DNA from: an uncultured Candidatus Saccharibacteria bacterium
Lineage (GTDB): Bacteria > Patescibacteriota > Doudnabacteria > UBA920
Assembly: GCA_964416765.1 (NCBI GenBank)
Contig: CAYQEU010000001.1
Coordinates: 212,480 to 276,479, forward strand
DNA: 64,000 bases
Reading direction: 5' to 3'
Part shown: positions 44,485 to 63,220 of the stretch, piece by piece
Layout of the letters: each line of letters begins with the position of its first letter
Numbering within the stretch: position 1 is the stretch's first letter
Notes under the pieces: generated by a model
The model's input: the letters and a program-made list of their open reading frames with translations, nothing else
The model's database searches: none
What the model was told of the DNA's origin: nothing
Position numbers and translations under genes: made by a program

Positions 44485-44784
44485 TTACTGGGGATTAGCG
44501 CTTTGGTCCATTTGGTTTGCGTCGTTTCCCAAATTATTCATCTGGTTATCTATATTATTGAGGTCGGTATCCAGAGAAGAATTTGAGTTGTCTGAATTGG
44601 TAGTTTCGGAATTAGCGTTACCGTTTGTTGCTTCACTATTGTAATTTGCGGAATTATCCACGGTATTCGCTTCGTAATTGTTGGCGTTATTGGTATAGGA
44701 ATTACGGGCCAGCGCATACCACACCGCTCCGATTAGCAATATGATCACTACTAAGATGCTGGCTATTTTGGCGTTTTTTGACAT
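44485..44784 (-). CDS. small membrane-anchored Asn/Ser-rich low-complexity protein
   Basis: One TM, then an N-, S- and D-rich low-complexity sequence. Co-directional with the upstream gene. Confidence 0.35.
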   Translation of the reverse strand: MSKNAKIASILVVIILLIGAVWYALARNSYTNNANNYEANTVDNSANYNSEATNGNANSETTNSDNSNSSLDTDLNNIDNQMNNLGNDANQMDQSANPQ

Positions 44785-45053
44785 AGGGAAAGTTTATTTA
44801 ATGCTAAGCCATAGGGCGGCGTACCACCCTACTAAGTATACACCCAATCCGTCATTTATATCGCTCGCCACACAGGGCAAGTTTCGTATTAATGTGCCAC
44901 AATGCGTCTTCATGATTCTTCATTAAATCTTTATCTGGCTTACTCGAGTTATAGCCACTTTAGTTAAGCGGTAAAAAAACCGACACCTTTTGGGGACTAT
45001 TCCGTTTATTAATACAACTACAAATTAACGCATCAATGAAGGAGGTGAAAAAT

Positions 45054-45152
45054 ATGCCAAAGGATAATGGAGGTCAGTTCCAGGAGGGAAGTGACCGTGC
45101 TCGTGAAGCCGGTCAAAAGGGGGGTCAAAGCAGCAGTGGGGGTAATCAATAA
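45054..45152 (+). CDS. KGG-repeat stress-induced small protein (32 aa), not in the ORF track
   Basis: RBS aAGGAGGTGa 6 nt upstream. MPKDNGGQFQEGSDRAREAGQKGGQSSSGGNQ matches the KGG stress-induced repeat family (YciG/YmdF-like). Confidence 0.5.
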   Translation: MPKDNGGQFQEGSDRAREAGQKGGQSSSGGNQ

Positions 45153-45187
45153 GTTTTAACTTAATCTATATGAGGAGGTGAGTATAT

Positions 45188-45274
45188 ATGGCACGAGGAA
45201 ACCAAGATTCAAAACGTGATTCCCAAGGGGGAAATCGCAAACAAGGGGACAGTTCCCACGATAGTAATAGATAA
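45188..45274 (+). CDS. second small hydrophilic protein (28 aa), KGG-like, not in the ORF track
   Basis: RBS GAGGAGGTGa upstream. MARGNQDSKRDSQGGNRKQGDSSHDSNR sits in tandem with the previous gene. Confidence 0.4.
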   Translation: MARGNQDSKRDSQGGNRKQGDSSHDSNR

Positions 45275-45314
45275 ACATTCCGCACGGCATTAATGCAAAA
45301 ATACGATCTTTTTT

Positions 45315-45343
45315 ACTCTGCAAAATATAAACTATTTTGCAGA
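45315..45343. repeat. perfect 12-bp-arm palindrome CTCTGCAAAATA-taaac-TATTTTGCAGAG
   Basis: Read directly from the sequence. The same CTCTGCAA..TTGCAGAG core recurs at 63235-63252. Confidence 0.5.
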
Positions 45344-45625
45344 GAATAAAGGCTCGTATAAAGATAAATATATGAGAAAAAACTTAAGTATAACAGTGGC
45401 GGATGTACGACGGGGCATGAAATCCAAACTCACCAGCTTAAAGCAAATTAGGGTGGATTGTTCAAGGCAGTTGAGGAGCTTTGGGCTGGGACTAAGGCTC
45501 CGGGTCAAAAACAGGTCTGTTAGGTCTGATATAGTGCCCCGGCACGGGCTAAGCAAGATATTCCGTTAGGATATAGAAAAGGCAGCCGACGTTAATGGTC
45601 GCTGCCTTTCCGCTGTTTATCACTG

Positions 45626-45784
45626 TTACTCTGCGTTGTCTTCCTTGCACCCGACTACGCTGCCGCAATCCTTACAGGAAGTAATCTCCCTGTCCATCGG
45701 TGCTCCGCATCCTGATGCGGAATTTGAACGCCAAGTAAAAGTATTATTATGGTCGCAATCTTCTGGTGCTAGCTTCTCAACCAT
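45626..45784 (-). CDS. Cys-rich small protein (52 aa; four Cys pairs, Zn-ribbon-like)
   Basis: GGGAGGAG RBS precedes the internal ATG (MVEKLAPEDCDHNN..CGAP..CKDCGSVVGC..). The ORF track extends to 45829 without an RBS. Confidence 0.4.
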   Translation of the reverse strand: MVEKLAPEDCDHNNTFTWRSNSASGCGAPMDREITSCKDCGSVVGCKEDNAE

Positions 45785-45826
45785 GGTCTCCTCCCGAATA
45801 TAAAATTGACTGCGAGTTAAGTATAC

Positions 45827-45854
45827 CAAAAAACCGCCTTTTAGGCGGTTTTTA
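45827..45854. terminator. hairpin terminator aaaaaccgcc-tttta-ggcggttttt
   Basis: Perfect stem with A and T flanks. It is downstream of the 45857 minus-strand gene. Confidence 0.55.
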
Positions 45855-45856
45855 TG

Positions 45857-46153
45857 TTAACCCCGGAAATTCCTCATTCGGTCGTTAAATTGGCGGCGGC
45901 GGAACTCTTCGTCCAGTTCTTCGGTGCTTTTTTGCGGCTGAACTTCTTGCTCTTGTTTCTGCATGAATTTTTCCGTCAGCTTGTCTATTGCTACTCTGTC
46001 GTCGTTTTCGGAGCTTTCTTCTTTACCGGATTCTTCTCCTGTCTGTTCATCAGTACTCTGTTCATGGCGCCTTTGTATATCTAAGTCAGTTTCGGGGATG
46101 CTGTCTACCGGCGGGATGGAGTGGCTTTCAAATGAGATTTTATTTTCTGGCAT
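45857..46153 (-). CDS. acidic hypothetical protein
   Basis: 98 aa, Glu/Asp/Gln-rich, immediately upstream of the CPBP protease gene. Confidence 0.35.
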   Translation of the reverse strand: MPENKISFESHSIPPVDSIPETDLDIQRRHEQSTDEQTGEESGKEESSENDDRVAIDKLTEKFMQKQEQEVQPQKSTEELDEEFRRRQFNDRMRNFRG

Positions 46154-46157
46154 TTAG

Positions 46158-46895
46158 TTAAGATATTAAATGAAGCAAGAAAGGAATGAGAACAAACATT
46201 GTCAGGTCAGCGGTGGCATGAGAAAACATGGCCGACGGCAATCCTTTTTTCCAGTACAGCCAGCCGAAGACCAATCCGCCCAAACCGTTCAAGACGATAG
46301 CACGGACGACCACCAAGGGGGTAATGGCGGCGAGCGCAGCAGTCGCCGGTAAATGGCCCAGGCCAAAGAGTATTGCCGCCAGTACTATTGATGCCCACAT
46401 TAAGCCAGTGTGATTTTTAGGTTCGGCGACGCCGCCAATTTTCGCAAATATCCAAACGAATAGCGATACAAAGAATAATCTCATAAGCAACTCTTCAACA
46501 ATCCCGCCGTACAAAGGGACTATGAGCATTTTCCAGGTATCAATTTTTACTGATTCTATGGTTAGGTTGGGAAGAAACCGGCTGAAAGCATGGTCACCCA
46601 CGGTGATGAGCACCGCCGCTAGTACTCCAAGAGCAACAGATATCGCAATTGTCTTGGTTTTGGTTTCATTATTATGAACTAAGTCGGTGGAAAGTCCCGT
46701 AGCGCGCGCCGCTCTGAGGCCAAAGAATACTGCGACCGCTAGAATTACACTAGTTTGCACCAGGATTAGCAACACTATGACCGGAAGAGGAAAAGGCGCG
46801 TTTTTTAGGGAAGACTCTAATAGGGACAGGATATAAGGAATTCCTGCCGCGGTTCCAAGAAGCCCTAAAAGCAAATAGCCAAAAAATCTTTTCAT
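46158..46895 (-). CDS. CPBP-family intramembrane metalloprotease (CAAX protease/Abi-like)
   Basis: EELLMRLFF (EExxxR) and FGLGHL motifs. Six to seven TM helices. Confidence 0.7.
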   Translation of the reverse strand: MKRFFGYLLLGLLGTAAGIPYILSLLESSLKNAPFPLPVIVLLILVQTSVILAVAVFFGLRAARATGLSTDLVHNNETKTKTIAISVALGVLAAVLITVGDHAFSRFLPNLTIESVKIDTWKMLIVPLYGGIVEELLMRLFFVSLFVWIFAKIGGVAEPKNHTGLMWASIVLAAILFGLGHLPATAALAAITPLVVVRAIVLNGLGGLVFGWLYWKKGLPSAMFSHATADLTMFVLIPFLLHLIS

Positions 46896-47092
46896 AATTT
46901 AGTATAACAAAAAACCGCCATTGTAGGCGATTGAGTGGTGGGTGGGGTCTTGGCTGGCCTCCTCGGTCGCGGAAAACCCAAACTACAATATCCATAGGCT
47001 TTCCCAGCCGAAATTATTATACCAATTTTGACCCTCCTCGGACAGGCCAAAATGAGACAAATAAGACACTATAAAAAGGGGTGCTCAGTGTC

Positions 47093-47602
47093 TCATTTAT
47101 AAACGCATAAGTCCATTACTATTGGGTTAACAACCAAATAAATCTGCCACAACAAGAGAATTGAAAATATTAAAAATAGGGTTACAAAAATCAGTTTTTC
47201 TTTTGACCAACGTTCTTTAGCGATGACTGGATATTTTTGTTTAATAATTTCATGGAACTTGCGGAAGAAGGCCACAAGAATATAGGCAAATCCTAAAAAC
47301 AACAAACTTTTTAGTGCCTGATTGCCGGATGTAGTGTGCGGGACTCCGCAGTAAGATTGGGCAAGAAAAATTAAGAGTGATATTTCCGCAGCAACAAAGA
47401 ATAAGGCCCTTAGTACCACAAATCCGGCCATAAACATTATTATGGCGAGCAATGCTATCAATACCACCCCTTCAGTAATTCCTAGAGCTGCAAGGAAATG
47501 GCTTCCAAAATAACGATACCCAAGAAAAAATAGGCCAGTAATCACTAACGAAAAAGCGGCAGGTAGTATATTTTCTTTGCGAAGCAAAAGCTTTATATTC
47601 AT
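47093..47602 (-). CDS. small polytopic membrane protein (operon gene 5)
   Basis: 169 aa with four TM helices. The start overlaps the upstream stop (ATGA). Confidence 0.5.
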   Translation of the reverse strand: MNIKLLLRKENILPAAFSLVITGLFFLGYRYFGSHFLAALGITEGVVLIALLAIIMFMAGFVVLRALFFVAAEISLLIFLAQSYCGVPHTTSGNQALKSLLFLGFAYILVAFFRKFHEIIKQKYPVIAKERWSKEKLIFVTLFLIFSILLLWQIYLVVNPIVMDLCVYK

Positions 47603-48687
47603 AAAAGGTTATTCTTGAGTTTAACATTTTTCTTATCAGCCTGGACGTATTTTAATAAATCCTCCTCCCGCTCCAAGCCCCTGATCCGACCAGATACAAA
47701 GCCAAGGCGATAATCTATTCCTTCACTCATTAAACGCCAATTAGAGCCTTGTAGAGCTTTTTGGATGGCATTCTTCAAGTCTTTCTTACTGGTGTATTCA
47801 TCTCTGCCTTCTTTACTGTCGACGGCAGTAAAACCGACAACAACATCCTTAGTCATCTGAGGCGGCTGAAATTGCATACTAGTATATCCAGCGGCCTCAA
47901 ATACTGGGGCTAGAATTTTCTGGACTTCACCGAACGGTAGCTTTTTTATTTTGGCTATCGCATCGTATAAATCTTTATTTTTATCTCTTTCTTCCCACTC
48001 TTTGGCAAGCCTGCCCATTTCCATCAAGCGATGATATTCTTCAACGGCTTTATCTCCCTTTTCTTTATCAAAACAAAACCGCTTGCGGTCTTCTTCATAG
48101 TGCTCGTCAGGCTTTTCTTCTTTAATATGCAAGTCTAGAGTTTCGACCTCGGCATTGCCGCAACTATCACAGTTGTAAGTTATGGTAATAACTTCTCCGT
48201 TTCTTTCATCTTGGGAAGACATCTCGTGCTGACACTTTAAACACAAGTGAGGCTTAGTTATATATTCTTCGTTGTCCTCATAAAAAGCCCGTCTAGGCAG
48301 GCACTTATTCGGACAATCGTAGAAGAATAGAACCCGCTCAGATTCACCCTTGATGTCAAGGTGTTTGCTTGTACTACTCATCCCGGAGCCGCATTTCAGG
48401 CATTTTACTCCTCTGGGGGCAATAGCGTTCTCTTCGTGTTCATCTCTGCGACGATCGCGCTCCATCCATTCCCGAATAGTTTCTGGCTTGCGCATATATC
48501 GCTCGGCGCATTCGTAATACAGAGTTAGCTGATGGACAACGTATTGGGCATGCTTTTTATCCTTTTCTTGTCCTTCGTATCTGGACATATCCTGATTTAA
48601 CACAGCATCTTCCGATATTCTACATCGGCTGACAGTTATGGAGTCATAGAGGTCGCTATAATAAATTTCGTCTTTAAGATGCTTCAT
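47599..48687 (-). CDS. hypothetical protein with duplicated C4 zinc-ribbon (operon gene 4)
   Basis: Two paralogous segments: CLKCGSGMSS..(~22 aa)..YDCPNKC and CLKCQHEMSS..(~20 aa)..YNCDSCGN. No catalytic motif recognised. Confidence 0.5.
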   Translation of the reverse strand: MKHLKDEIYYSDLYDSITVSRCRISEDAVLNQDMSRYEGQEKDKKHAQYVVHQLTLYYECAERYMRKPETIREWMERDRRRDEHEENAIAPRGVKCLKCGSGMSSTSKHLDIKGESERVLFFYDCPNKCLPRRAFYEDNEEYITKPHLCLKCQHEMSSQDERNGEVITITYNCDSCGNAEVETLDLHIKEEKPDEHYEEDRKRFCFDKEKGDKAVEEYHRLMEMGRLAKEWEERDKNKDLYDAIAKIKKLPFGEVQKILAPVFEAAGYTSMQFQPPQMTKDVVVGFTAVDSKEGRDEYTSKKDLKNAIQKALQGSNWRLMSEGIDYRLGFVSGRIRGLEREEDLLKYVQADKKNVKLKNNLL

Positions 48688-49829
48688 ACTTTTACATCCT
48701 GCACTTCAATGTTATCACCAAAAAATTCTTGGACAAGTTCGTTATATCGATAGAAGTCTCCTAAGATTTTCATTGCAAGCTCGAGATCTAAACTACCATC
48801 TATTCTAAATAATTTAATTTTACTACATTTTATCTTTGTGTCTTCGGCTCCCGAGCTCCATTTATAAGCTACTCTTCTATTATGTTCTTCGGAAGTGTAG
48901 ACCATTACAGCAGGATCAAAGTGTACAAATTTTTCTATATTTTTATTCCAAAGCATATGAACATACTTATGGAGAATATATTTGTTAGACTTAGCTGGTA
49001 TAATTTCTTCTATCTCAATTGATTTCATACCATCTTTAGTATTACTAATATAAAATTCGGTCCTTATTAGCGAATAGGCGAAGTCTAGTAATGGGTCTTC
49101 TGTGCTTCTTGTGTGAATAGTCACTCCCTTAAAATTAGGGTCGTTCATTCTTCCAATACTAAATTTAGGACCAAACCAATGATCCATTTCTATAAGCTCA
49201 CTAACCTGTAATGTACGTGAAATCCTTATAGGATCCAAAGCTAAACTTAGTTCTAAATTTTTATTTTGAGACACTTCTCGCAAGTAGGCAGTTATCTCAG
49301 TGAAATTGACAGAATGGTATCTACGTAGATAAGGATGGTAGTAAATCCTATACATGTTTTTATATATAATATACTGATTTTCTAAACGAAAGTCGGGAGT
49401 TATTTTTACCAATCCATATCTATCAAATTTTAAATCTGTTATAACATCAGACAAGTTAGATTTTCTTATATCCTTGAAAATAAAATCTTCCTTTTTTGGA
49501 TAAAGACTCCAAAGATCGCTCTCAATTAAATGGCAAGCATATACATCGGGAGAATAATTGCTTTTGCTCACCATGAAGTGAACGACAGGGTTATTTATTT
49601 TCAAAAAATCTTCAACCGCCTCAGTAGTAAGTATGCCGACCTGGGCTCTATACATTTCGATTAAGCATCGTAAATTATAACCAATATCTGATTGGGCTTC
49701 CATATAACGATATATCATCAACGGAAAGATGTTTTCATTAGCCAATTCTTTACACAAAATCAAAAGATAATGCTCAGCTGAGCTGAGCATCTTTTTATCA
49801 TTATCGAATATAAATTTAGCAATATTCAT
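48684..49829 (-). CDS. hypothetical protein (operon gene 3)
   Basis: 381 aa, Tyr/Lys-rich and AT-biased codon usage. No recognisable domain. 4-nt overlap with gene 4. Confidence 0.5.
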   Translation of the reverse strand: MNIAKFIFDNDKKMLSSAEHYLLILCKELANENIFPLMIYRYMEAQSDIGYNLRCLIEMYRAQVGILTTEAVEDFLKINNPVVHFMVSKSNYSPDVYACHLIESDLWSLYPKKEDFIFKDIRKSNLSDVITDLKFDRYGLVKITPDFRLENQYIIYKNMYRIYYHPYLRRYHSVNFTEITAYLREVSQNKNLELSLALDPIRISRTLQVSELIEMDHWFGPKFSIGRMNDPNFKGVTIHTRSTEDPLLDFAYSLIRTEFYISNTKDGMKSIEIEEIIPAKSNKYILHKYVHMLWNKNIEKFVHFDPAVMVYTSEEHNRRVAYKWSSGAEDTKIKCSKIKLFRIDGSLDLELAMKILGDFYRYNELVQEFFGDNIEVQDVKV

Positions 49830-49837
49830 TTTAGCAA

Positions 49838-51196
49838 TTAAAAAGGTATATCATCTACAGAAACTTCTTTTTCAACTACCGGCATTAGGTCTTCTGCCTC
49901 TAGCCCCTCTAGCAACAAATTTGTATCTGCCTGTGGCAATTCTTGGACTGTTTTTAACTTTTTCTCAATAGTTCTAGATTTTTTAGCCGCATCTTCAATA
50001 GTATTACTTGCTTCACTCAACTTCTTTTGCGTTTTTTCTAAGATATCTCCAAATCTTCCAAACTCTGTCTTTACAGCTCCCAAAATTGACCAAACTTCTC
50101 CAGAACGTTTTTGAATAGCCAAAGTTCTAAAGCCCATTTGCAAACTATTTAACAGCGCACCTAAAGTCAAAGGGCTAGTAACTATTACTCTGCATTCTCG
50201 CTGGAGCATCTCGCATAATCCCGGCCTTCTGGCAACTTCTGCGTATAAGCTTTCATAAGGTAAAAATAGTATGCCGAAATCAGTGGTATGAGGAGGATTA
50301 ATATACTTATCTCTTATGGATCGTGCCTCTGTTTTGATTCTGATTTCTAGTTGTTTAGAAGCTGCTTCCACTAAATCGGCATCTGCATTTTCATAAGCTT
50401 CTACGAGTCTTTGATAATCTTCTTGCGGAAATTTAGCATCAATAGGCAACCAAATTGGTTGCTTTGAATCATCGGGTCCAGGCAGTTTAATAGCAAATTC
50501 AACACGTTCGTTGCTTCTAGGTTTAGTAGCAACATTTTTATCATATTGCTCAGGATTTAAAATTTGTTCCAAAAGCGAACCTAACTGAACTTCACCCCAT
50601 ATACCCCTAGTTTTTACGTTTGTTAAAACTTTCTTTAAGTCTCCAACACCTAAAGCAAGGTTCTGCATTTCTCCCAAACCTTTATGGACCAATTCCAATC
50701 TGTCGCTTACTAATTTAAATGAGTCTCCAAGTCTGCGTTCTAAGGTAGCGTGCAATTTTTCGTCTACGGTCGCACGCATTTTTTCTAACTTTTCCTCATT
50801 GCCTTTTTGTAGTGAATCTAGCTTTTTCTCAACCACATCTTTTACTTGATCCAGCTTCTTTTCACTCTTATCTGTCAGTCCGGTAATTGTTTTGGATAGA
50901 GCATCAAAGTTCTTATTTTGAGCTTCCGCAAATTCAAAATTTCTTTTATCTACCGAGTCTCCAAAAGTTTTAATGGTATTTGCTAATTCTTCTCTCGTTA
51001 TTTTATTGTTATTCGCTAGCTCGGTCCTATTAGTAGAAAACTCTTCTTTGACCGTTTTTTCGATGCGCTCGATAGTCTTATCAATGCTTGCATTAATACT
51101 TTGCTCAGGGTCAGTATTTTTACTTGCGTTTTTTATGACCAAATAAATAATAAGCCCTTCTAGCAAAACGGTAATAACAAGTAAAATAAGTATCAT
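49838..51196 (-). CDS. rmuC: RmuC-family DNA recombination protein (operon gene 2)
   Basis: N-terminal TM, long coiled coil, and the RmuC signature RGIWGEVQLGSLLEQIL (compare E. coli RmuC ..GNWGEVQLERvLE..). Confidence 0.7.
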   Translation of the reverse strand: MILILLVITVLLEGLIIYLVIKNASKNTDPEQSINASIDKTIERIEKTVKEEFSTNRTELANNNKITREELANTIKTFGDSVDKRNFEFAEAQNKNFDALSKTITGLTDKSEKKLDQVKDVVEKKLDSLQKGNEEKLEKMRATVDEKLHATLERRLGDSFKLVSDRLELVHKGLGEMQNLALGVGDLKKVLTNVKTRGIWGEVQLGSLLEQILNPEQYDKNVATKPRSNERVEFAIKLPGPDDSKQPIWLPIDAKFPQEDYQRLVEAYENADADLVEAASKQLEIRIKTEARSIRDKYINPPHTTDFGILFLPYESLYAEVARRPGLCEMLQRECRVIVTSPLTLGALLNSLQMGFRTLAIQKRSGEVWSILGAVKTEFGRFGDILEKTQKKLSEASNTIEDAAKKSRTIEKKLKTVQELPQADTNLLLEGLEAEDLMPVVEKEVSVDDIPF

Positions 51197-51222
51197 ATAT
51201 TTAACTTAATTAGTTTGAAAGA

Positions 51223-54200
51223 TTAAAGAATAGGTTTAATATTCATTTCATCCAATTTTTTCCATAAACTATCCAGAGCTTTTTCCTTGTTTCGATAAAA
51301 AGCACTACCCGTAACACGCCAGAACTCCCAGCCAGCTCTGCGTAATTGCCTTTCTCTTACTTGATCTTCTTCCCAATTCTCTAAAGTATGATATTGGTCA
51401 CCATCGCATTCTACCGCCAATCTAGATTCTTCACCCTGAACAACTAAATCAATTCTATACCCAATTACCGGATATTCAGGTAAGACCTGATATCCTTTAT
51501 CAATCAATAAGTTGCCAACATCAACGGAAAATTGAGAAGCCCTACCAGCGTCAAATTCTTTCTTAAGTGCTTCACGTCCAGCATGCAGTTCTTCTTTCTT
51601 TGGGTCATAGAACCAGTTCAATATCTTATATCTCCAATCATTTTGATTACCCAATGATTCCAAAGGTAAGGAATGGAATAAGAACATCTGATCACGAGCT
51701 CTCGAGGCGGCAACGTTAAATCTACGTTTTGCGTCTTCATTAGTTAACGGTGCTACCGTATCATTTTTGTCATTCGGATTTAAGGCGCGAACCATAGACA
51801 ATAGCATTACATCACGCTCATCGCCTTGAAACTTATAAGCATCACCACACTGAATCTGTCTTTCTTCAATTTCTTTTTCAGTAAGTACGCCTTGAACTAC
51901 GAGATTTCTTATTAACTTTTCAATGTATTTAGCCTGATCTTCAGCTAACAGAGAGATTATTCCAAAAGTGCACAATCGGCCATCGGGACGTTTCTGATAT
52001 TTTGGGTCTTTAAGACACTCCACTAATTTGTTTATAATTGCTTCTGCTTCGGGCTCGTTAACTTTGTTATTAGTATTTTGGTAGCCTTTTTCAATAAACA
52101 CCGGAACCAGTGCAGGCTTTAGTAAGCCCTTAGGATTAGGATAACGCAATGGTTTAAGCTTGCCCTCGTAAATATGGTGATTACTAAATGCAATGATTTC
52201 AGGAACGCATCGGAAGTGTTCATTAAGCTGAATAATATTAGATAGTCTAATTTTGGCTAAATCAAACAAACTAGAAGTAATGGAAAAGCTATCTTTGAAT
52301 GGAATATCAAATAAAAATCTAGAAATTAGCTCAAATATCCTTTCCTGATCTTGAAATATACCTGCGGGGCTTATTTGCTCAGGATCACCTACTACCAAGA
52401 GCTTCTTGCCTAAATACCCAATTGTTAAACCTCGGATATCGCATTGACTTGCTTCATCAAATATCACCACATCAAATAAACCAGGTTTAGGTTCTGCAAA
52501 CATTTGCGCCGCCCGATGCAAAGGCATGATCCAGACAGGTACAGCATTCTTGGCTTCTTTTAGAGCCTCTTGAGCTGCTCTTAAATGTGTAACCGCATAT
52601 TTGCCAGTACCTTTTCCATATTTTTTCATTTCATGCGACCAAGCCATTAAAGCGTCGCGCTGCGGTTTTGTAACCTTATCAATCTGTCTTTGCCAGGCGA
52701 GAACAGTAACCAGTTCTGAATTTAACTGGTATTCCTTTTTCGTAAGTCGTTCAAATCTATTTTGCAATTCGTCAATATCAATATGATCATGGATAGTATC
52801 CAACCATGATTCTAGTCTTGCTATTTTCCATGCCAGTTCTAAATTTTTAGGATAATTTAATTTTTTATGATGTTCTGCAAGTTCTTTTAGGTCAGAAAAA
52901 AGGTTGGGAGCAACTTTAGAAATTCTTGAAGAAATCTCCTTAAGCTTTATGGATTGATTTCTATTCTCATGAATAATGTTCAATTCTTCAAAGGATGCTT
53001 TCCATCCAGATGAACTCCTTTTTTGCAGAGCATCAATTAAGTTTTTAACTATCGGGTGCTTAGTTTTATCATTTACGGAATCTTGTAATTTTAGGGTCCA
53101 TCCGGAAAACAATTTTTCTAACTCGATAAGTTCAAATTTTGCTACTGTGGAAGTAATGATAGCTATGATCCTTTCTATATCAGTAGGACTGGTAAAAGAT
53201 AAGTCCGATAGTTCTTTCGTTTTCTGGCAAAAAGAGTTTATGCTAGCGTATTCATCGGTATAATTTACTATTCTATGCAGACTGGCACATAGTACTTCAA
53301 GTTTTACGATATCTACCAATATATCAAAATCGGGAGATGATTTAAGACCGGAAAAACTCTGTTCAAGTAAAAGTTCAATTTCCTTTTGTGCTTTGATGGC
53401 CTGTACGTAATGGCGGAACAGTTCAACACTTTCCTTTTCAGTAGGTGCACTTCCATTCACCGTGTAAGTTTCTAAGACTTTTTTAGCGATTGAGGGTAAG
53501 AGGATTTTATTTAAAGTAGTTATCTTTCCTCCATTTTTAACTTTTTCAAGTAAAGCATTTACTGCCTTATTTAGATCATTAATAGAAAGTTGCGTTTTAC
53601 CCTCAACTTCGTGACCTAATAAGGCATTGTGACAAGTGCCGATTAAACTTATTTTTTCGGAAATTTTCTCAATTACTGTCCGCCATTTTTCCTTTTCGTG
53701 AGTACTCGAAGCACAAAGATTAAAAATTTCTAACTCATATCCCTCACGAATCGAGTTTAGTAATTTCTTAGCATCTAGCAATTTATTCCATACGCTGGTT
53801 AATTCTGCTGGTTCAAATTCCAGGTTTTTATGATTGAATACTTCGCTAGAGGTTTGAGCTTTATTAGAAAGATCCCTATACGAAGCAAAGGCTTGTAATA
53901 CAGCTTCTTCGTCAGGTAACGTAGATAGCGGGGGTAATTCGTATTTATATAAATCTCTATCCTCTCGGGTTAAATGAGATAATAGTTCATGGCACGCAAC
54001 TATATCTTGATCCGTAAAATCAAGCTCTATCTTAAAATCTATATTATCAGTGAACCAATCAATATCGCCAGTTTTCCTATGTTTATTTACCAGCTGCGCC
54101 GCGTCAATTGGTTTAATGACTTCGTTACCAATATTTATTTCTGCAGTTGAGTCAGTGAGAATATAATGTCGTATCTGATTGGCTAGGTCTGCCTTTTCTG

Positions 54201-55842
54201 CTCGAACATCTTTTAGCTCCTTTCTAAAACGTTCCGCACGTTCCTCGCTAAATTTTGTGTGCCGCTCTCCTAAGTTTGAGCTTATTTCGCTAATTGATTG
54301 CTGGAGAACATCATCTCTCTTTGCAGTTTGGTGAAGTTGAGACACTGCCAAGCTACGAATATTTTCTGGTAGCTTATCTCTTAATACTTCTAGAGCCTTA
54401 CTTGTTTGGGAGGTAACTAAAACCGTCTTACCTTGCGCTAAGAAGCGGGATATTAGATTGGCAATCGTATGACTTTTACCAGTTCCGGGTGGACCTTTAA
54501 CTACAACACCATAATTTGAATCTAAACGTTCGGCAATTCTTTTTTGTTCATCATTCCACGGCAATGGGAAAAAGAGTTCTGATTCAGTAATTGACTTTTG
54601 TGCGGATCCGTCGGAAGATCCACTTTTGGTCTGTTCTTCATAGTCCCCAATAAGATCTTTGATAAACTCGGTGGGCTCAATATCACTTTGTTCTATATCT
54701 CTACGAATAAGTCCGGCGTATTTCGACCACAAGTCATTATTACGCTTACGTGCAAAAATAACTGGGGCATTCCAAATGGCTGGTACTTCTGTCAGCTCAG
54801 GAGCAGTTACCATTTGGTCAGTAAATTTATCTTCGCTATCGGTTGATATGTAATTGATTAGTGTTCTGCTTTGAGTTTTCAGAGATTGCAGATGCCAGAA
54901 ATCGAAAGGATTTGCATTAATTGCATCGGTCCAAGCAATAAGATCCATTTCCGCAGGATTATCCATTTCATACAGAGGAGACGTTTCTACAAATCCTCTA
55001 AACATCGTATCTGCAGAAATCTCAATGACTCGCTTGGAAGCATCAAAGTCAATTGTTAATGGAGTTAGGAAAACAGGAGCGTATATTGCACCCACAGACT
55101 TACTTTGCCACGTAAGAAGACCTTGACCCAACAGAAGCTCATAACTATCACCTTCATTTTTTAGCAATAGTCTTAGCGCATATAATTGATCGTATAAGAG
55201 GTTTGCTTTATAAACCTTTTTAACCTTATTTGCCCAAGGCTCCCAATCGTTTTTAATATAACCCTTTAATAATTTCTCGAGCTCAGGATGATCATTCCAA
55301 TGATCTTCTAGGTACTGAAGTTCAATATGCTCTGGTAAACTCTGTGGGTTGACGGTAACCCAATCTTCCAATATTTTAGGAATTCTTTGACCCTGCTCAT
55401 AGCTCTTTTTAAAATTTTTAAATTCGCTGATCCTATTTTTGTCTTGATCAAAACTTATTTGGCGATCTATTTTTTCTTTAGGCTTTGGCTGTGTAAGTGG
55501 TGTAACTTCTTCAATCCATTCTTCTAAAGCTTTTGGTAATACTGGCGCGCTCTTGATGTTCTTTTTCTCTACACGTAACCAAGCAGCAGACGAAGGGAGA
55601 ACCTCGGTATTACTTTCAGTTTCAAACGGCCTAATAGATAAGTTCTCCACATCTAATGGAAAATCAGCCAACCACCATGGAGATGGTGGGGTTGCAACAT
55701 TTCTAAAATCTCGGACTACTGCATCATCAAGAGATAAAGCCTTTTCTAAGTAAGTAAATAATCTTACTATCTTATTTCCCTGATCACTTATACTTTTAAC
55801 AGTAGGACCTTTTTGTTCTGTAAGAGGTACCTTATCGGACAT
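51223..55842 (-). CDS. 1539-aa SF1 helicase (Upf1/DNA2-like AAA_11/AAA_12) with N-terminal DUF4011-like region and C-terminal DUF559/Vsr-like PD-(D/E)xK endonuclease domain
   Basis: Walker A VVKGPPGTGKSHTIANL. Motif II VVIFDEASQ. Motif III LLVVGDPEQ. Motif VI FNVAASRARDQMFLFHS. C-terminal IGYRIDLVVQGEESRLAVECDGDQYH resembles the DUF559/Vsr nuclease module. Confidence 0.8.
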   Translation of the reverse strand: MSDKVPLTEQKGPTVKSISDQGNKIVRLFTYLEKALSLDDAVVRDFRNVATPPSPWWLADFPLDVENLSIRPFETESNTEVLPSSAAWLRVEKKNIKSAPVLPKALEEWIEEVTPLTQPKPKEKIDRQISFDQDKNRISEFKNFKKSYEQGQRIPKILEDWVTVNPQSLPEHIELQYLEDHWNDHPELEKLLKGYIKNDWEPWANKVKKVYKANLLYDQLYALRLLLKNEGDSYELLLGQGLLTWQSKSVGAIYAPVFLTPLTIDFDASKRVIEISADTMFRGFVETSPLYEMDNPAEMDLIAWTDAINANPFDFWHLQSLKTQSRTLINYISTDSEDKFTDQMVTAPELTEVPAIWNAPVIFARKRNNDLWSKYAGLIRRDIEQSDIEPTEFIKDLIGDYEEQTKSGSSDGSAQKSITESELFFPLPWNDEQKRIAERLDSNYGVVVKGPPGTGKSHTIANLISRFLAQGKTVLVTSQTSKALEVLRDKLPENIRSLAVSQLHQTAKRDDVLQQSISEISSNLGERHTKFSEERAERFRKELKDVRAEKADLANQIRHYILTDSTAEINIGNEVIKPIDAAQLVNKHRKTGDIDWFTDNIDFKIELDFTDQDIVACHELLSHLTREDRDLYKYELPPLSTLPDEEAVLQAFASYRDLSNKAQTSSEVFNHKNLEFEPAELTSVWNKLLDAKKLLNSIREGYELEIFNLCASSTHEKEKWRTVIEKISEKISLIGTCHNALLGHEVEGKTQLSINDLNKAVNALLEKVKNGGKITTLNKILLPSIAKKVLETYTVNGSAPTEKESVELFRHYVQAIKAQKEIELLLEQSFSGLKSSPDFDILVDIVKLEVLCASLHRIVNYTDEYASINSFCQKTKELSDLSFTSPTDIERIIAIITSTVAKFELIELEKLFSGWTLKLQDSVNDKTKHPIVKNLIDALQKRSSSGWKASFEELNIIHENRNQSIKLKEISSRISKVAPNLFSDLKELAEHHKKLNYPKNLELAWKIARLESWLDTIHDHIDIDELQNRFERLTKKEYQLNSELVTVLAWQRQIDKVTKPQRDALMAWSHEMKKYGKGTGKYAVTHLRAAQEALKEAKNAVPVWIMPLHRAAQMFAEPKPGLFDVVIFDEASQCDIRGLTIGYLGKKLLVVGDPEQISPAGIFQDQERIFELISRFLFDIPFKDSFSITSSLFDLAKIRLSNIIQLNEHFRCVPEIIAFSNHHIYEGKLKPLRYPNPKGLLKPALVPVFIEKGYQNTNNKVNEPEAEAIINKLVECLKDPKYQKRPDGRLCTFGIISLLAEDQAKYIEKLIRNLVVQGVLTEKEIEERQIQCGDAYKFQGDERDVMLLSMVRALNPNDKNDTVAPLTNEDAKRRFNVAASRARDQMFLFHSLPLESLGNQNDWRYKILNWFYDPKKEELHAGREALKKEFDAGRASQFSVDVGNLLIDKGYQVLPEYPVIGYRIDLVVQGEESRLAVECDGDQYHTLENWEEDQVRERQLRRAGWEFWRVTGSAFYRNKEKALDSLWKKLDEMNIKPIL

Positions 55843-55952
55843 AACGAATTTTGCGTTGGTAAATATGCCTTATTTTAGCATTTTTTATTCAATGTTTACA
55901 AAGGATAGACGTTCATAATCTATCCAAAAAGAATTTAGATTTTCTTTAACTT

Positions 55953-56594
55953 TTATTTATTTACGACCCATTCAGCTGGTAGATAACCAGAAAGACCTAC
56001 TTTATCTTTATCAACGTCGTTAACTCCAGCGAGAATCCTCACTCTTCGGTACGGAAAACTTTTATCAATGAGCTGTACTTTTGATCCGTTGCCTACACAA
56101 AATGCACCGGGAATTTCTAAAAGGCCTAGAAAATCTTTGGCTGCAAGAGCCTTGCCGATAGCTTCAGCGTCATCTTTAGTTTTACCAAGACAGATATTTT
56201 GATCAGTGCCGTCGTATCCCGGAATACGAAGATAACCTTGATCACCAACTTTCATACTTTCCCAATCCCCACCGGTTGCAGCGGTAGTAGCAGGTTGATT
56301 ACCATTTTGAATTTCTGCGGACTTTTGTCGGGCACTATCTTTTGAGCTGCTGGCTATACCAATAACAATTGGCAGTCCAAACAATAAAAGTAGTGCGGTT
56401 AATACTTTATGCCTGCTGAACCAGTTTCTTAAATCACTCTGACACTGGGGACACTTCTTGGCCGTGGCATTGATTTCTGATTTGCAATGCGGACACACCT
56501 TAGTTGCTTGCATTCTTGTAGCATGGTCTTTCCGGCAAACGGATAAACAAAAGGGGCTACCCGCTTGCCTGACAGCCCCTTTCGGAACTGCCAA
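55953..56594 (-). CDS. Zn-ribbon membrane protein (N-terminal CPHC..CPQC, one TM, extracytoplasmic domain)
   Basis: CPHCKSEINATAKKCPQCQ then a TM (VLTALLLLFGLPIVIGIA). The start is ambiguous between M1 at 56594 and M28 at 56513. Confidence 0.45.
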   Translation of the reverse strand: MAVPKGAVRQAGSPFCLSVCRKDHATRMQATKVCPHCKSEINATAKKCPQCQSDLRNWFSRHKVLTALLLLFGLPIVIGIASSSKDSARQKSAEIQNGNQPATTAATGGDWESMKVGDQGYLRIPGYDGTDQNICLGKTKDDAEAIGKALAAKDFLGLLEIPGAFCVGNGSKVQLIDKSFPYRRVRILAGVNDVDKDKVGLSGYLPAEWVVNK

Positions 56595-57057
56595 CCAACC
56601 TTTCGGCTGGTGACCATGCTACTGGAAGCAAGACGGATAGCCGCCTTCATGTAGCATGGTTCTTGCGCCATACCTCGCATTTCTACGAGGGTTAGGACAT
56701 TAATTTGTTAAGCTAATTATACGATATTTTGACGATTCCGTATAATCCCGTCCATCCTATACTATTCCCCTGATTTTGCGAAGTCCCAAGTTATCAACAA
56801 GTTTTCTTGCGTTTCCAAAGGCTTTATGGTAATTTTTAAATACAAATTAATACATGCGAGGTTCTGCCCGGTTTCGCTCAGATTTTCCCGGAAGTAGTAC
56901 GCACCTATCACTGCGGTACTTCCAGACTCAGGATTCATAGACCCATGTTGGGGTACAACACCTTTTGGTGTCGTACTTCCACGTCCGTGGCCTCAAAGAA
57001 GTAACCGACCCAAAGGGGTCGGATTTTTGTTAATAGGCCGCGAGAAAGAAAAAATAT

Positions 57058-58341
57058 ATGGCAACGAATAAGTTGCAAATCCAGCAAGTTAGTATTGGAC
57101 TGCTTAAGCCCGCGCTTTATAACCCGAGGAAACACACGCCTCAGGCTATGGAGCAATTAAAAGCATCGATTAAGAGGTTCGGGTTAGTCGATCCCATTAT
57201 CGCCAATGGTGCTGCAAGCAGAAAGAATATTGTCATAGGAGGACACTTTAGACTGAAAGCTGCTAAAGAACTTGGATATAAACAAGTTCCGGTAGTTTAC
57301 TTAAACATTCCAAATGTTAAAAAAGAAACTGAATTAAATCTTCGGCTCAACCGCAATACGGGAGAATGGGATTTCGAGCTACTCAAGTCCTTCGATATGG
57401 ATCTGCTGCTGGATGTCGGCTTTGATGATACCAACCTTTCAAGTATTTGGAATGATACGCTGCAAACTGAGGATGATGAATTCGACGTTGAAAAAGAATT
57501 AAAGAAAACCAAGAAACCGAAAACCAAACCGGGCGAAATCTACCAGCTCGGCAGCCATAGATTAATCTGCGGCGATTCAACAAACGTAGATGTTGTAAAA
57601 ATCTTACTTGGCAAAAATCAGGCTGACATGGTTTACTGCGATCCGCCTTTCAATATTTCTCTGGACTACGACAAAGGCATCGGCAACAATGTTGGCAAAT
57701 ACGGCGGAATTCATACCAATGATAACCGGACGGATTTGGAATATCGCAAGTTCCTCAAAGCAACAATGGAAAATGGCTTAGCAGTTTCCAAGAAAAATTT
57801 ACACATATTCTACTTCTCCGACGAAACCTACATCGGTATGATCCAATCTTTATTTGCAGAATTAGGCCTGCAAAATCGTAGGGTTTGTATGTGGGTAAAG
57901 AATAACCAAAACCCTACACCGCAAATTGCTTTCAACAAGGTCTATGAACCAGTAACCTATGCGACCCGAGGCAATCCATACCTCGCTAAGATCGTGACTA
58001 ATCTTAACGAGATTTTGAATAAGGAGGTAGGTACTGGCAACCGTGTCCATGACGATATTTTAGACCTCTTTAATATCTGGCTCGCCAAGCGCAAAGCCGG
58101 ACAAGATTACAACCACCCAACCGAGAAACCGCCAACGCTTCATGAGAAAGCTTTGCGCCGTTGCACTAAACCTGGCAATTTAGTCTTAGATTTATTCGGC
58201 GGTAGTGGATCAACTTTGGTTGCGTGCGAGCAGCTCAAGCGCAAGTGCTTCTTGGTAGAATTCGAACCGATCTTTTGCGATCTGATTATTAAGCGTTTTG
58301 AAAAGCTAACGGGCATTAAAGCCAAGAAGTATGAAAACTAA
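57058..58341 (+). CDS. ParB-like nuclease domain fused to DNA N6-adenine/N4-cytosine methyltransferase (beta-class)
   Basis: ParB/Srx box IVIGGHFRLKAAKELG. MTase motif IV VYCDPPFN precedes motif I DLFGGSGST. Confidence 0.8.
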   Translation: MATNKLQIQQVSIGLLKPALYNPRKHTPQAMEQLKASIKRFGLVDPIIANGAASRKNIVIGGHFRLKAAKELGYKQVPVVYLNIPNVKKETELNLRLNRNTGEWDFELLKSFDMDLLLDVGFDDTNLSSIWNDTLQTEDDEFDVEKELKKTKKPKTKPGEIYQLGSHRLICGDSTNVDVVKILLGKNQADMVYCDPPFNISLDYDKGIGNNVGKYGGIHTNDNRTDLEYRKFLKATMENGLAVSKKNLHIFYFSDETYIGMIQSLFAELGLQNRRVCMWVKNNQNPTPQIAFNKVYEPVTYATRGNPYLAKIVTNLNEILNKEVGTGNRVHDDILDLFNIWLAKRKAGQDYNHPTEKPPTLHEKALRRCTKPGNLVLDLFGGSGSTLVACEQLKRKCFLVEFEPIFCDLIIKRFEKLTGIKAKKYEN

Positions 58342-58747
58342 GCAGCAAAAACAACTGCTTCTAGAGCAGCTCAAGAAAACGCCAATTGTTCAGGTTGCCT
58401 GTGAAAAGACTGGGGTCGGCAGGGCAACCTACTATCGCTGGATGAAAGATGATAAAGCCTTTGCCAAAGAGGCCGAAGAAGCCTTGCAAGCTGGAAGTCT
58501 CATGGTCAACGATATGGCTGAAAGCCAGCTTATGGCAGCCATTCGGGATAAAAATATGACGGCAATTATCTTTTGGCTGAAACACCATCATCCGACCTAC
58601 GGCACGAGAATAGAAATAAACGGACACTTAAAAACTTCTTTTGAAGAATTAACACCAGAGCAAGAAGCCTTAGTCCGTAAGGCTTTGAGGCTCGCAGCCT
58701 TGGATACTAATACCTATGATAATGGAAACACAAAACATACTCCCTGA
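58331..58747 (+). CDS. terminase small subunit-like HTH protein
   Basis: N-terminal HTH (VACEKTGVGRATYYRW). 138 aa. Overlaps the TerL start. Confidence 0.45.
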   Translation: MKTKQQKQLLLEQLKKTPIVQVACEKTGVGRATYYRWMKDDKAFAKEAEEALQAGSLMVNDMAESQLMAAIRDKNMTAIIFWLKHHHPTYGTRIEINGHLKTSFEELTPEQEALVRKALRLAALDTNTYDNGNTKHTP

Positions 58748-60233
58748 CCTCATTACTAAGATCATCAAGGACAAAGCAGTCAGAATTCAGGTAACTACAC
58801 AAAGCCACTTTTGGTTTTTCAACGTCTACTTTAGCGATTACGTAAGATATCAGACTGCCCCTTTCCAGCGAGAAATGTTTGCACTGAGCGAAGACGAAAC
58901 GATAAAAAATTTGGTTGTAGTGGCATTTCGCGGGTCTGGCAAAACCACCATATTTAATCAATCGTATCCGCTTTGGGCGATCCTCGGAAAACAACAGAAG
59001 AAATTCGTTCTTATACTTGCCGAGACTATGAATCAAGCCCGGCAAATATTAAAAAATATCAAGGAAGTTTTAGAAACCAATGACTTGCTTCGCAGAGACT
59101 TAGGGCCGTTCACTGAGGAGGAAACGAGGAACTCATCTACCATTAACTTCCTCAATTACAAAGCCAAAATTATGGTTGCTTCCAAAGAAAGCAGCATTCG
59201 CGGTATTAAGCACGGAGCACATCGGCCAGATTTGATCATCCTCGACGATATTGAAGATATTAATTCTGTTAAAACCCGCGAATCGAGAAACAACACATAT
59301 ACCTGGCTGACTGGAGATGTAATGCCGCTCGGCGACCCAAAGACTCGCCTGATCTTTATTGGTAATCTTCTGCATGAAGACTCACTCTTAATGCGGCTTA
59401 AAAATGGCATAGATGAAGGTAAGCTACGGGGTCAATATCGGCTATACCCTTTGGTGCAAGATGACAAAATTTTATGGCCCGGCATGTACCCAACAATGGA
59501 CGATATCGAGCAGTTGAGATTAAGCCAGGGAAACGAAATTGCATTCCAACGCGAGTACATGCTTAGAATTATTCCGGATGAAGACTGGGTAGTACAACCT
59601 GAGTGGATACAATACTACGACGTACTGCCAGACAGCAAATACCATGACTACACCTGTATTGGCATCGACCTTGCTATTTCAGAAAAAGAAGCTGCTGATT
59701 ATACTGCCATGGTACCGGCATTGGTAACCGGCAACAGAGATAATTTGAAAGTTTTTATCTTGCCCATGATTATTAACAAACGGCTAACGTTCTTAGAAAC
59801 ACAGGAGGAAGCAAAAAATCTCTCTATGGGTATTGGGAGCGGCAGGCGTGCAAAAATCTATGTCGAAGATGTTGCGTATCAGCGGGCATTCATCCAAGCG
59901 ATACACGCTGCCGGATTTCCTGTAAAAGGCGTTTCAGTGCACGGCCAAGACAAACGCGCAAGGCTTAATGCCAATGTATACCTTGTCCAAGCTGGCAAAG
60001 TTTTCTTTCCGACAAAAGGTGCAGAACTTCTAATCCAGCAACTCGTTCATTTTGGCGTGGAAAAGCATGATGACTTAGCAGACGCTTTTGGCATACTGCT
60101 ATCCAAAATCATTGAGGAAGATAACAAGGGAGGTATGGTCATAACTGGAACTTCGTACAGAAACCGATCGGACTGGAATACGCTCAACAGCAGGCAAAAA
60201 CATATGTTACAGGAAAGACACGGGGGTTATTAG
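58716..60233 (+). CDS. phage terminase large subunit (Terminase_6-like)
   Basis: ATPase P-loop VVAFRGSGKTT. Walker B LIILDDIEDI. C-terminal RNaseH-like nuclease acidic residues (VEDVAY.., HDDLADAF). Confidence 0.75.
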   Translation: MIMETQNILPDLITKIIKDKAVRIQVTTQSHFWFFNVYFSDYVRYQTAPFQREMFALSEDETIKNLVVVAFRGSGKTTIFNQSYPLWAILGKQQKKFVLILAETMNQARQILKNIKEVLETNDLLRRDLGPFTEEETRNSSTINFLNYKAKIMVASKESSIRGIKHGAHRPDLIILDDIEDINSVKTRESRNNTYTWLTGDVMPLGDPKTRLIFIGNLLHEDSLLMRLKNGIDEGKLRGQYRLYPLVQDDKILWPGMYPTMDDIEQLRLSQGNEIAFQREYMLRIIPDEDWVVQPEWIQYYDVLPDSKYHDYTCIGIDLAISEKEAADYTAMVPALVTGNRDNLKVFILPMIINKRLTFLETQEEAKNLSMGIGSGRRAKIYVEDVAYQRAFIQAIHAAGFPVKGVSVHGQDKRARLNANVYLVQAGKVFFPTKGAELLIQQLVHFGVEKHDDLADAFGILLSKIIEEDNKGGMVITGTSYRNRSDWNTLNSRQKHMLQERHGGY

Positions 60234-61755: not shown

Positions 61756-62664
61756 TCATTCAATTTTTCTACCATCTCTCACCCCCAAAATATGGGGCCA
61801 CTCCATCCCGTCTTTTATCGTCCAATATAAGGATGGGTGACCGTTTAAATGTTTAAACCTTAATTCGCAGTCGGTAAGCGTTTTAGTCCTTCTGCGAATA
61901 AGGTAAGCATTAAGCCATCGCTTAGCAGCCGGCATTGACTGAAAACTTTTAATAGATTTAAGTCTCGCTTGTAAATGGGAATTATAGAGCTCGACTAAGT
62001 TTGTATCTCTCGGACAGTCTTTAATGGTTAGGTACTGAAACAGAATATCTCTGCGATCGTTAATTTCAAAAATTATATCCCTGACTTTTTGGTCGTCTTT
62101 GCCATAGCGATCAAGCACATACCGCATGGCACCAGTAATTGCCATATCCGTCTGCGCTTCCAAGAATACCCTATTCCTAAGGCTTGCAAAGAATTGATGA
62201 TAGGTGTCTTCCGTCCTTACCCGAAGAAAACGTCTTAGATTTTCTAAAAAGTGATTTTGGCAAAGTTGTATCTTAGCAAACGGATACGCCTTGGCCAGTG
62301 CTGACTTAACCGTCATTCGATCATCGCACACCACCACCTTGAGTGGATAACCACACTTCTTCAACTGTCGAAATATTTCAGTGAACGCTAAATGACTTTC
62401 AGACTTTGCCAACACCCCGACCGGGATATCATGGGTAAGGTAATCAATACCATAAATGAACGGTATCTTCTGGTTTTGATCTGCGACCTTCACAAACTTA
62501 CCGTCTAACACCAAAATACCAGAGAACTTTCGTGGGTCACAAAACTGTTCAGTTAGGGCAGTATTGTCAGGTAAGGTATTGAGTTGAGATACAACGTGAA
62601 CATACGCATCGGACCCTGATATATTATACTCGTCACCCAGTTTTCTAAAAGGTACACCATCCAC
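61756..62664 (-). mobile_element. IS256/Mutator-like DDE transposase, C-terminal ~300 aa. The N-terminal ~130 aa appears to sit in another frame at 62704-63090, so the gene is probably frameshifted or a pseudogene
   Basis: D (LVLDGKF), D (VVCDDRM) and the signature C-terminal TNLVELYNSHLQARLKSIKSF (TNxxExxN). The catalytic region begins near residue 50 of this ORF. Confidence 0.45.
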
Positions 62665-63184
62665 GTATTGGGATCCACAAAATCGGTGGTCTGGCGCCGT
62701 GATTTATCGAGAATGACTTATGACATGACTTACAAAAATATCGCTTCCGGCTTCCTTCGCTGCCGCGCTTAATAGTTCGCTTGCTACCACAGAGCAAGCA
62801 TTTTGGGTTCTTTTTTTTAACATTGCTGAGGCTAACTTAATTATTAAATTTCCCATAATTATAACAAAAATCCGGTCGAGTGTCGATGCTTTCCGCATTG
62901 CATTGTGTTGAAGATAACGTTCACGTTTGAGTGCTTGGACCGGCAATCGGCTTGACAACCAGTAAGGTGCGGAAAAAATTTCATCTAAGAAAGTATTATA
63001 TTTTGTTAGCAATTTCAAAAAGTAGAAATTAGATACATACAGTAAACACAATATGTTTAAGGTATATATCTGAATTTTACAAACGATCACTAGTCAAACC
63101 ACGATTTTGTCGCTCATCTGTGAGCGGCTTTTTAATTTGACGCACGAAAATTTAAACGGAAAGCGGATCCGTCCGTCCATGACA

Positions 63185-63214: not shown

Positions 63215-63220
63215 ATTCAG

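Follow-up and report, generated by a model that had tools for sequence, protein, structure and literature searches.

A hypervariable cargo slot flanked by a conserved zinc-ribbon gene in a probable compact integrase/terminase element of Patescibacteria

The window analysed here is a 64,000-nucleotide (nt) stretch of contig CAYQEU010000001.1 from an uncultured Candidatus Saccharibacteria bacterium, in which an initial annotation had proposed that five minus-strand open reading frames (ORFs) form a single undescribed defence system. We named these ORFs p1 to p5 in the 5′ to 3′ order of the array. Comparison with related loci largely refutes the five-gene proposal and points instead to what is probably a stack of separately acquired genes that occupy the variable slot for cargo within a compact Patescibacteria integrase/terminase element, with the double zinc-ribbon protein p4 as its conserved flank. 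The element would be integrative and either phage-derived or satellite-like, with a backbone that reads serine integrase, TerL, TerS, ParB/DNA methylase, in some copies a LOOT RNA leader, cargo slot and p4. Cargo would be inserted in the interval bounded by p4 on one side and the divergent promoter region of the methylase on the other, and would therefore be co-transcribed with p4.

More than 435 full-length homologues of p4 (362 amino acids, aa; 47599-48687, minus strand) were found, approximately 40-64% identical and almost all from Patescibacteria. A scan of one genome per species of this phylum confirmed 307 stretches, of which the best 80 were fetched with 10-kb flanks. The p4 gene usually had the backbone module of the window beside it: by tblastn against the 80 loci, homologues lay within 10 kb of p4 at 49 loci for the methylase, 31 for the integrase, 37 for the TerS-like protein and 22 for TerL, and the integrase homologues were up to 78% identical. 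As for the other window genes, p1 and p3 were found at none of the 80 loci, RmuC (p2) at one, where it was not adjacent to p4, and p5 at one. Mapping of gene order revealed a recurring arrangement in which integrase, TerL, TerS and methylase run in one direction and, diverging from them, zero to six co-directional genes followed by p4 run in the other. The gene upstream of p4 was co-directional in 61 of 76 loci, typically at a distance of -4 to +40 nt, and these upstream neighbours fell into 58 distinct protein clusters across the 76 loci, while the downstream neighbours fell into 69 distinct clusters across 75. Nine loci lacked cargo altogether, with methylase and p4 directly divergent. At least four genomes carried two copies of p4 and five copies of the p4 element lay on IMG/VR contigs, while GenBank phages yielded none. 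Contigs L016, L023, L024, L036 and L040, which also carry the p4 element, are labelled as metagenome-assembled genomes of Gammaproteobacteria, Bdellovibrionales or Methanoregula; since p4 is otherwise strictly confined to Patescibacteria, these look like binning or labelling errors.

In the window, the corresponding backbone lies to the right of the array on the plus strand, divergent from it. It consists of a DNA methyltransferase with ParB-N-terminal and N6_N4 domains (57058-58341; Pfam, and phrog_498 at 4e-102), a TerS-like helix-turn-helix (HTH) protein (58331-58747; phrog_4044, 8e-09), TerL (58716-60233; phrog_38, 3.2e-82) and a large serine recombinase/integrase (60416-61723; Pfam Resolvase, Recombinase and Zn_ribbon_recom; phrog_95, 1e-65) that probably marks the element end. 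These Pfam and PHROG matches bear out the terminase, recombinase and methyltransferase neighbours named at the outset, and the AT-rich character of the block also held, its GC content being 0.33-0.40 over 47-56 kb versus 0.498 for window bases 1-43600. A setting of AT-rich cargo on a mobile element is thus supported. Within the array, p4 (0.425) departs from p1 (0.374), p2 (0.368), p3 (0.323) and p5 (0.367), and matches the methylase, TerS, TerL and the zinc-ribbon gene upstream of p1 (0.42-0.44). Given this composition, the linkage to the backbone, the recurring gene order and the varied neighbours, p4 is best described, from sequence comparison, as a backbone gene of the mobile element, whose slot is hypervariable and has p4 as its conserved boundary on the 3′ side, rather than as a component of any particular defence system.

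The p4 protein contains two CxxC...CxxC modules, and their cysteines are invariant over 24 homologues, which upholds the double C4 zinc ribbon first noticed in the sequence. Across these 24 sequences, which are 41-63% identical to p4, 37 residues are invariant. An AlphaFold2 (AF2) model with a predicted local distance difference test score (pLDDT) of 89 comprises a helical hairpin at the N-terminus, a ferredoxin-like domain at the C-terminus and, besides these, the two zinc ribbons and a helical linker, and its structural matches were generic and partial, either ferredoxin-like or helical. The protein may act in regulation, in replication or as a recombination directionality factor. It could also be imagined that p4 goes beyond a passive flank and acts as a universal accessory of the upstream cargo, whether as regulator, sensor or activity gate. 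Such a role would suit a gene that is always the last co-directional one and usually lies a few nt from widely differing defence genes, as well as its strong conservation and its confident, novel multi-domain predicted fold; moreover, Patescibacteria-restricted defence proteins of unknown fold do exist, namely LdgA and DdgA (PMC12366544). However, the cargo-free loci place p4 directly beside the methylase, PADLOC and NCBIfam defence models leave it unmatched, and both its GC content and its linkage track the backbone, so that we consider the accessory role unlikely.

The contents of the slot differ from locus to locus and are rich in defence genes. In the closest relative (L007/L011), where the element lies about 5 kb from ddl, a distance similar to that in the window, the slot directly 5′ of p4 is occupied by a patatin and a SMODS CD-NTase (CBASS) together with a LexA-like regulator. 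Other copies contain a set of methylase, ClpP, ResIII nuclease and KAP NTPase genes, and others hold type I restriction-modification (RM) systems, Hachiman HamB (2e-69), a type IIG RM enzyme (1e-240), a PDC-S06/AAA_13 protein (1e-98), a RelA/SpoT protein with PDC-S33, PDC-M36A, Shedu, Schlafen/PDC-S19, caspase or Macro-domain proteins. Altogether, 104 slot proteins at the first or second position before p4 match 513 PADLOC models (E≤1e-5). Proteins of 800-1220 aa also recur directly before p4 (L041 7565-9970, L036 5936-8932, L081 5698-9360, L083 6461-8920); none of these four matched Pfam or PADLOC, which makes them candidate defence genes of an undescribed type. At three loci (L063 6047-7537, L046 and L070), genes for the large subunit of exonuclease VII lie between methylase and p4, accompanied by ORFs of 60-80 aa that presumably encode the small subunit; the slot content is not all obviously related to defence.

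Conserved flanks around a variable, defence-rich interior are also what defines the P2/P4 hotspots, the accessory regions of phage-inducible chromosomal islands (PICIs) and cDHS1 of Pseudomonas aeruginosa (PMC10250203), and prophage and satellite hotspots likewise sit in elements with integrase and packaging genes. Conserved flanks around a variable, defence-rich slot were found here too, and integrase, TerS-like protein and TerL are present and keep the same compact layout in more than 20 loci, a gene set that may be satellite-like. No capsid gene was seen within 10 kb, where their absence was not checked systematically. Judged by its sequence, the p4-flanked slot is a defence-cargo hotspot of the P2/P4 and PICI type. 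It differs from those hotspots in belonging to another phylum, in its unrelated backbone and in having a flank, p4, and a LOOT leader that are uncharacterised.

Two LOOT RNAs (RF03000) were detected in the window at full model length, with 59.9 and 58.2 bits against a gathering score of 46.4. Copy a (56571-56698, minus strand) lies between the methylase gene and the array, and copy b (63227-63350, plus strand) lies 3′ of the integrase, past an inserted transposase. Although an nhmmer search seeded with the two copies found nothing, a covariance model built from them recovered LOOT-like RNAs in 14 sister loci (for example, L011 6067-6191, L062 4493-4623, L040 4879-5014 and L036 52-178). Each is followed, 50-100 nt downstream, by an ORF on the same strand that either runs divergently from the methylase or integrase or comes after the integrase; L036 and L041 have the latter placement, as copy b does. 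In an alignment of 11 copies, 15 of 18 base pairs showed compensatory changes. From this covariation and the consistent position across sister loci, LOOT looks like a 5′ leader of this element family. Compared with RF03000 in general, the RNA is here bound to a fixed position, as the leader of arrays in one element family. We found no published function for LOOT, and the main text of PMC5737381 contains no discussion of it. Going by the literature that we found, the association described here is the first genomic context to be reported for this RNA.

Several observations weigh against a stack of separately acquired genes. The five ORFs show the packing of an operon, including stops that overlap the next start, and the spacing given in the initial annotation was confirmed (26 nt between p1 and p2, 8 nt between p2 and p3, and 4-nt overlaps at p3/p4 and p4/p5), an arrangement compatible with functional coupling. 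One promoter-like site (TTGTAA-18-TAAAAT with TG; 55872-55901, minus strand, 5′ of p1) and one terminator-like site (a hairpin with a T-run, 46913-46932, minus strand, 160 nt 3′ of p5) stand at the array ends, both as consensus matches only. The divergence of p4 showed little correlation with that of methylase, TerL and integrase (Spearman 0.01-0.23); as the backbone genes are mutually uncorrelated too, this comparison says little about the linkage of p4. In L005, a p2 homologue with 85% identity is located two genes 5′ of a p3 homologue, which hints at a link between p2 and p3. Finally, the close contexts inspected numbered about a dozen for p1 homologues and seven for p3 homologues. Were all five genes, or six with the upstream zinc-ribbon gene, one undescribed system, with sensor or effector roles for the zinc-ribbon and membrane proteins, their tight co-directional packing and the single leader RNA and terminator-like site that bracket them would be readily explained. 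Against this, the combination recurs at none of about 100 loci, so that the five genes do not form a conserved unit; 58 different families occupy the position upstream of p4; p5 has one homologue, differently placed; and GC content varies among the genes, setting p4 apart from the other four. A single system of this kind is accordingly very improbable, and the least probable of the readings considered. As to the extent of the array, its five genes stand, but its start at p1 does not, as a zinc-ribbon/transmembrane (TM) gene and LOOT copy a lie upstream on the same strand.

Separate acquisition of the cargo also agrees with what p1 shows elsewhere. This gene (1539 aa; 51223-55842, minus strand) encodes an Upf1-like superfamily 1 (SF1) helicase with a C-terminal Vsr-like nuclease, as judged from Pfam, PADLOC, NCBIfam and motifs. 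Pfam places AAA_11 at residues 430-559, AAA_12 at 1190-1388 and a MTES_1575/DUF559 nuclease at 1438-1530 (5.9e-28 and 3.4e-4, respectively), the motifs are intact (Walker A GPPGTGKS at 450, DEASQ at 1129 and IDLVV...ECDG at 1464-1481), and the sole sequence relative in the PDB is the Upf1-like helicase Sen1. The helicase and nuclease assignments made at the outset therefore stand, while the DUF4011-like N-terminus is not supported, since Pfam gave no DUF4011 match at E≤0.01 and the defence models start at residue 384 or later. The best PADLOC model is PDC-S37 (PDLC05009; 4.7e-67, 224.8 bits), which aligns residues 384-1533 with positions 248-1341 of a 1550-position profile, followed by Hhe at 6e-36. 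Among NCBIfam models, ProA (NF058533) reached 257.6 bits against a cut-off of 1500 (residues 386-1533 versus positions 604-1706 of 1903) and Hhe (NF042953) 153.4 bits against an equivalog cut-off of 2000; the Hhe models of the two collections align only with residues 1002-1534 and 1101-1534. The suggestion that p1 belongs to the Hhe class thus holds insofar as p1 is of the Hhe/ProA/PDC-S37 kind, with scores far below the curated Hhe and ProA cut-offs. Mokosh was rejected as an identity, the MkoC and MkoA matches to p1 being confined to the helicase region, with no PLD domain in the Pfam results for p1 to p5.

Like Hhe, ProA and PDC-S37 (PADLOC PDLC02194 and PDLC05009; NCBIfam NF042953 and NF058533), p1 is a large AAA_11/AAA_12 SF1 helicase with a C-terminal Vsr/DUF559-type nuclease, a long insert separating motifs I and II, and a mobile-element or defence-island setting in which homologues mostly stand alone or near RM, BREX or Abi genes. 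Unlike them, it scores below the cut-offs, aligns only from about residue 384 on, has no detected DUF4011 and belongs to a separate Patescibacteria-centred subfamily, whose members are 62-73% identical and often have a second nuclease gene downstream. No paper describing "PDC-S37" or "ProA" was found. More than 3000 proteins of the family were scored, of which the top 120 share 62-73% identity with p1 over full length; the few named taxa among these are Levybacteria and Woesebacteria. Homologues in this identity range were inspected at 11 further loci, and p3, p4 and p5 were absent from all of them. Among the neighbours of p1 homologues were integrases of the serine and tyrosine types, DarT-Macro, a type IIG enzyme and HEPN-AbiU2; remote plasmid relatives stand alone next to RM/AbiE or BREX. 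A search of viral contigs found no p1. At L109 (10617-16218), a 70%-identical homologue is convergent to another methylase-methylase-TerS-TerL module, which adds a further position at which p1 is linked to these elements. At L092 (10-5176), an Eco57I-like type IIG enzyme and a DarT/Macro (DarG-like) pair lie 5′ of a p1 homologue, a typical defence island of another Patescibacteria contig. From its domains, p1 would be capable of acting alone, moving along invading DNA at the expense of ATP and then cleaving it.

The second gene, p2 (452 aa; 49838-51196, minus strand), is an RmuC-family protein as first annotated, with a Pfam RmuC match of 7.6e-74 at residues 135-424 and a PIDAKFP motif at 251. 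Its N-terminus, MILILLVITVLLEGLIIYLVI, is a hydrophobic anchor, and a coiled coil precedes the RmuC nuclease domain. The sole PADLOC match of a defence type was RTasRmuC (reverse transcriptase-associated RmuC, 7.3e-12), the others being weak coiled-coil matches to ZorA. In Shield, the membrane-anchored RmuC nuclease ShdA alone suffices against phages and accessory genes lie downstream (PMC10270631), and p2 shares with ShdA the membrane anchor, coiled coil and nuclease domain, as well as a defence or mobile-element setting with accessory-like uncharacterised genes downstream. It differs from Shield, which is reported in Pseudomonas only (PMC10270631), in its origin from Patescibacteria and its place behind a helicase-nuclease, and the shared layout is also common to housekeeping RmuC. 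By this likeness, p2 would degrade DNA in a Shield-like manner through a membrane-anchored coiled-coil RmuC nuclease.

The position of p2 directly behind p1 raises the question of whether the two work together, since a second PD-(D/E)XK-type nuclease follows p1 in five of seven informative contexts. It is RmuC in the window (gap of 26 nt), DUF2779 at L108 (19 nt) and L113 (14 nt), DUF2130 at L095/96 (2 nt) and, after an intervening 162-aa gene, DUF2130 again at L097, while no nuclease follows at L109/L112 or L093/94. It can be proposed that p1 and p2, possibly with p3, form one multi-nuclease defence system to which p4 and p5 are unrelated, in which p1 would sense or translocate on foreign DNA and pass it to, or activate, an exchangeable nuclease (RmuC, DUF2130 or DUF2779). 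Besides the adjacency itself, this agrees with the listing of RmuC and DUF2130 as PD-(D/E)XK families (PMC3424549), with the match of the DUF2779 protein to Cas4 models, with a Variovorax plasmid on which a 35%-identical helicase is followed 640 nt on by a split rmuC, with RmuC-like genes related to ShdA that lie inside type I RM and DISARM loci of Pseudomonas (PMC10270631; PMC11090510) and, for p3, with L005. However, such a partner is also missing from the Sphingobium, Acinetobacter, Fusobacteria and Deinococcus relatives, these islands also contain RmuC and DUF2779 where p1 is absent (L026, L025, L030 and L101/102), profile comparison of three-sequence alignments gave no signal between RmuC and DUF2130, and adjacency may be due to chance, as nucleases are abundant in defence islands. 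Because nucleases are frequent behind p1 and yet also occur without it, we rate a functional p1-p2 pair as plausible only, a minority view that falls somewhat below an even chance; recruitment of p2 as a swappable second nuclease of p1, rather than as a fully independent module, comes slightly closer to even, and a multi-nuclease system stands at the lower end of this range. The latter overlaps with a stack of separately acquired genes and is not exclusive of it. As a separate observation, the RmuC of L026 (3296-6100), which is 53% identical to p2, lies beside a 192-aa protein and ahead of a DUF2779 nuclease, without p1, and homologues of the 192-aa protein sit 3′ of p4 in L011 and L012.

We also considered that RmuC and the helicase-nuclease could be recombination or repair genes of the host chromosome with no part in defence. 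RmuC is indeed widespread and recombination-associated, with the same TM/coiled-coil/nuclease layout, and the p1 homologues are unusually conserved for proteins of 1500 aa (62-73% across many lineages). This explanation is nevertheless very improbable in view of the low GC content and the position within an integrase/terminase element, the CBASS genes that occupy the syntenic slot of the closest relative, and the integrases, DarTG, type IIG RM and AbiU2 genes that adjoin p1 homologues.

The third gene, p3 (381 aa; 48684-49829, minus strand), had been annotated as uncharacterised and, like p4 and p5, found no match in Pfam, PADLOC, NCBIfam or PHROGs. A word-indexed search returned nine relatives, while an exhaustive profile search yielded 1164 representative clusters with E≤1e-3, of which 353 had E≤1e-30, and some of the forms found are about 690-700 aa long. 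The protein thus belongs to a large family and would be the product of a mobile accessory or defence-associated gene. Close homologues immediately follow a CBASS pair (CD-NTase and Cap15), come behind RmuC and an Mrr-like nuclease (L005), have a serine recombinase and an HpaII RM system or else an HTH gene as neighbours, or stand alone amid insertion sequence elements on a P. aeruginosa plasmid. From these contexts, p3 would behave as an independently mobile gene, a rider that travels behind differing defence systems. The AF2 model (pLDDT 80, predicted template modelling score 0.78) gave no informative match to the PDB, and the His, Asp, Glu and Arg residues conserved in the family would fit an enzyme. 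Family members P0364, P0373 and P0382 (640-700 aa) have an additional C-terminal half, for which no PDB sequence match was found. A relationship of p3 to p4 was rejected (profile comparison probability of 0.35%), as were the proteins of about 795 aa beside p3 homologues at L001 and L004 as a common partner, these falling into separate clusters.

At the 3′ end of the array, p5 (169 aa; 47093-47602, minus strand) has about four to five hydrophobic helices, in keeping with its annotation as a small membrane protein. It lies just past p4, downstream and outside the slot, and its one homologue in the 80 loci, at L033, is upstream of p4. Multi-TM proteins lie downstream of p4 at only 10 of 76 loci, and p5 or another membrane protein was therefore rejected as a regular partner of p4. 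The homologue census suggests that p5 is itself variable cargo, with no conserved partner. At the other end, the first gene of the array encodes a zinc-ribbon and TM protein (55953-56513, minus strand); its ORF is listed to 56594, with the likely start Met at 56513 (Met28), and homologues lie elsewhere in the same element at L029 and L058.

Left of about 44 kb, the window carries the housekeeping genes EngB, aldo-keto reductase, Ddl, NUDIX, major facilitator superfamily (MFS) transporter and PBP1. Between these and p5, at 44485-46895 (minus strand), lie small ORFs and a CAAX-protease-like gene; none of these has a homologue among any of the fetched loci, and the same place in L007/L011 (11076-15632), about 5 kb from ddl, holds other small genes (NYN, glyoxalase/Ble and DUF5678). 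This stretch could represent another variable region, or else the other arm of the element. Beyond the integrase, a Mutator/IS256-family transposase, two small ORFs and a reverse-transcriptase fragment (61756-62664, 62704-63440 and 63491-63979, all minus strand) look like a later insertion into the element end, and low GC persists up to the window end. A scan for tRNA genes as attachment sites found none within the window, and megablast against E. coli genomes left the block unmatched.

In the ultra-small Patescibacteria, few defence systems have been identified and only one phage has been described (PMC12366544). The operon-like packing of genes within a hotspot does not by itself define a system; the element and its slot, the link to LOOT and the families of p3 and p4 are of more interest than the five-gene system first proposed. 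A far-reaching view would hold that an undescribed and widespread phage-satellite-like family, mobile as its gene content suggests, is the main shuttle of defence genes in Patescibacteria, that its slot is bounded by LOOT and p4, that one or both of these actively control or enable the cargo, and that p1 with an exchangeable nuclease (RmuC, DUF2130 or DUF2779) is a new two-gene design; taken jointly, these propositions are rather doubtful. The pairing of a helicase-nuclease with a swappable second nuclease is nonetheless flagged as a testable design, and the slot contents include several large proteins without known domains. Taken together, the p4 flank, the methylase/terminase/integrase backbone and the LOOT leader offer a handle for harvesting the defence repertoire of Patescibacteria.

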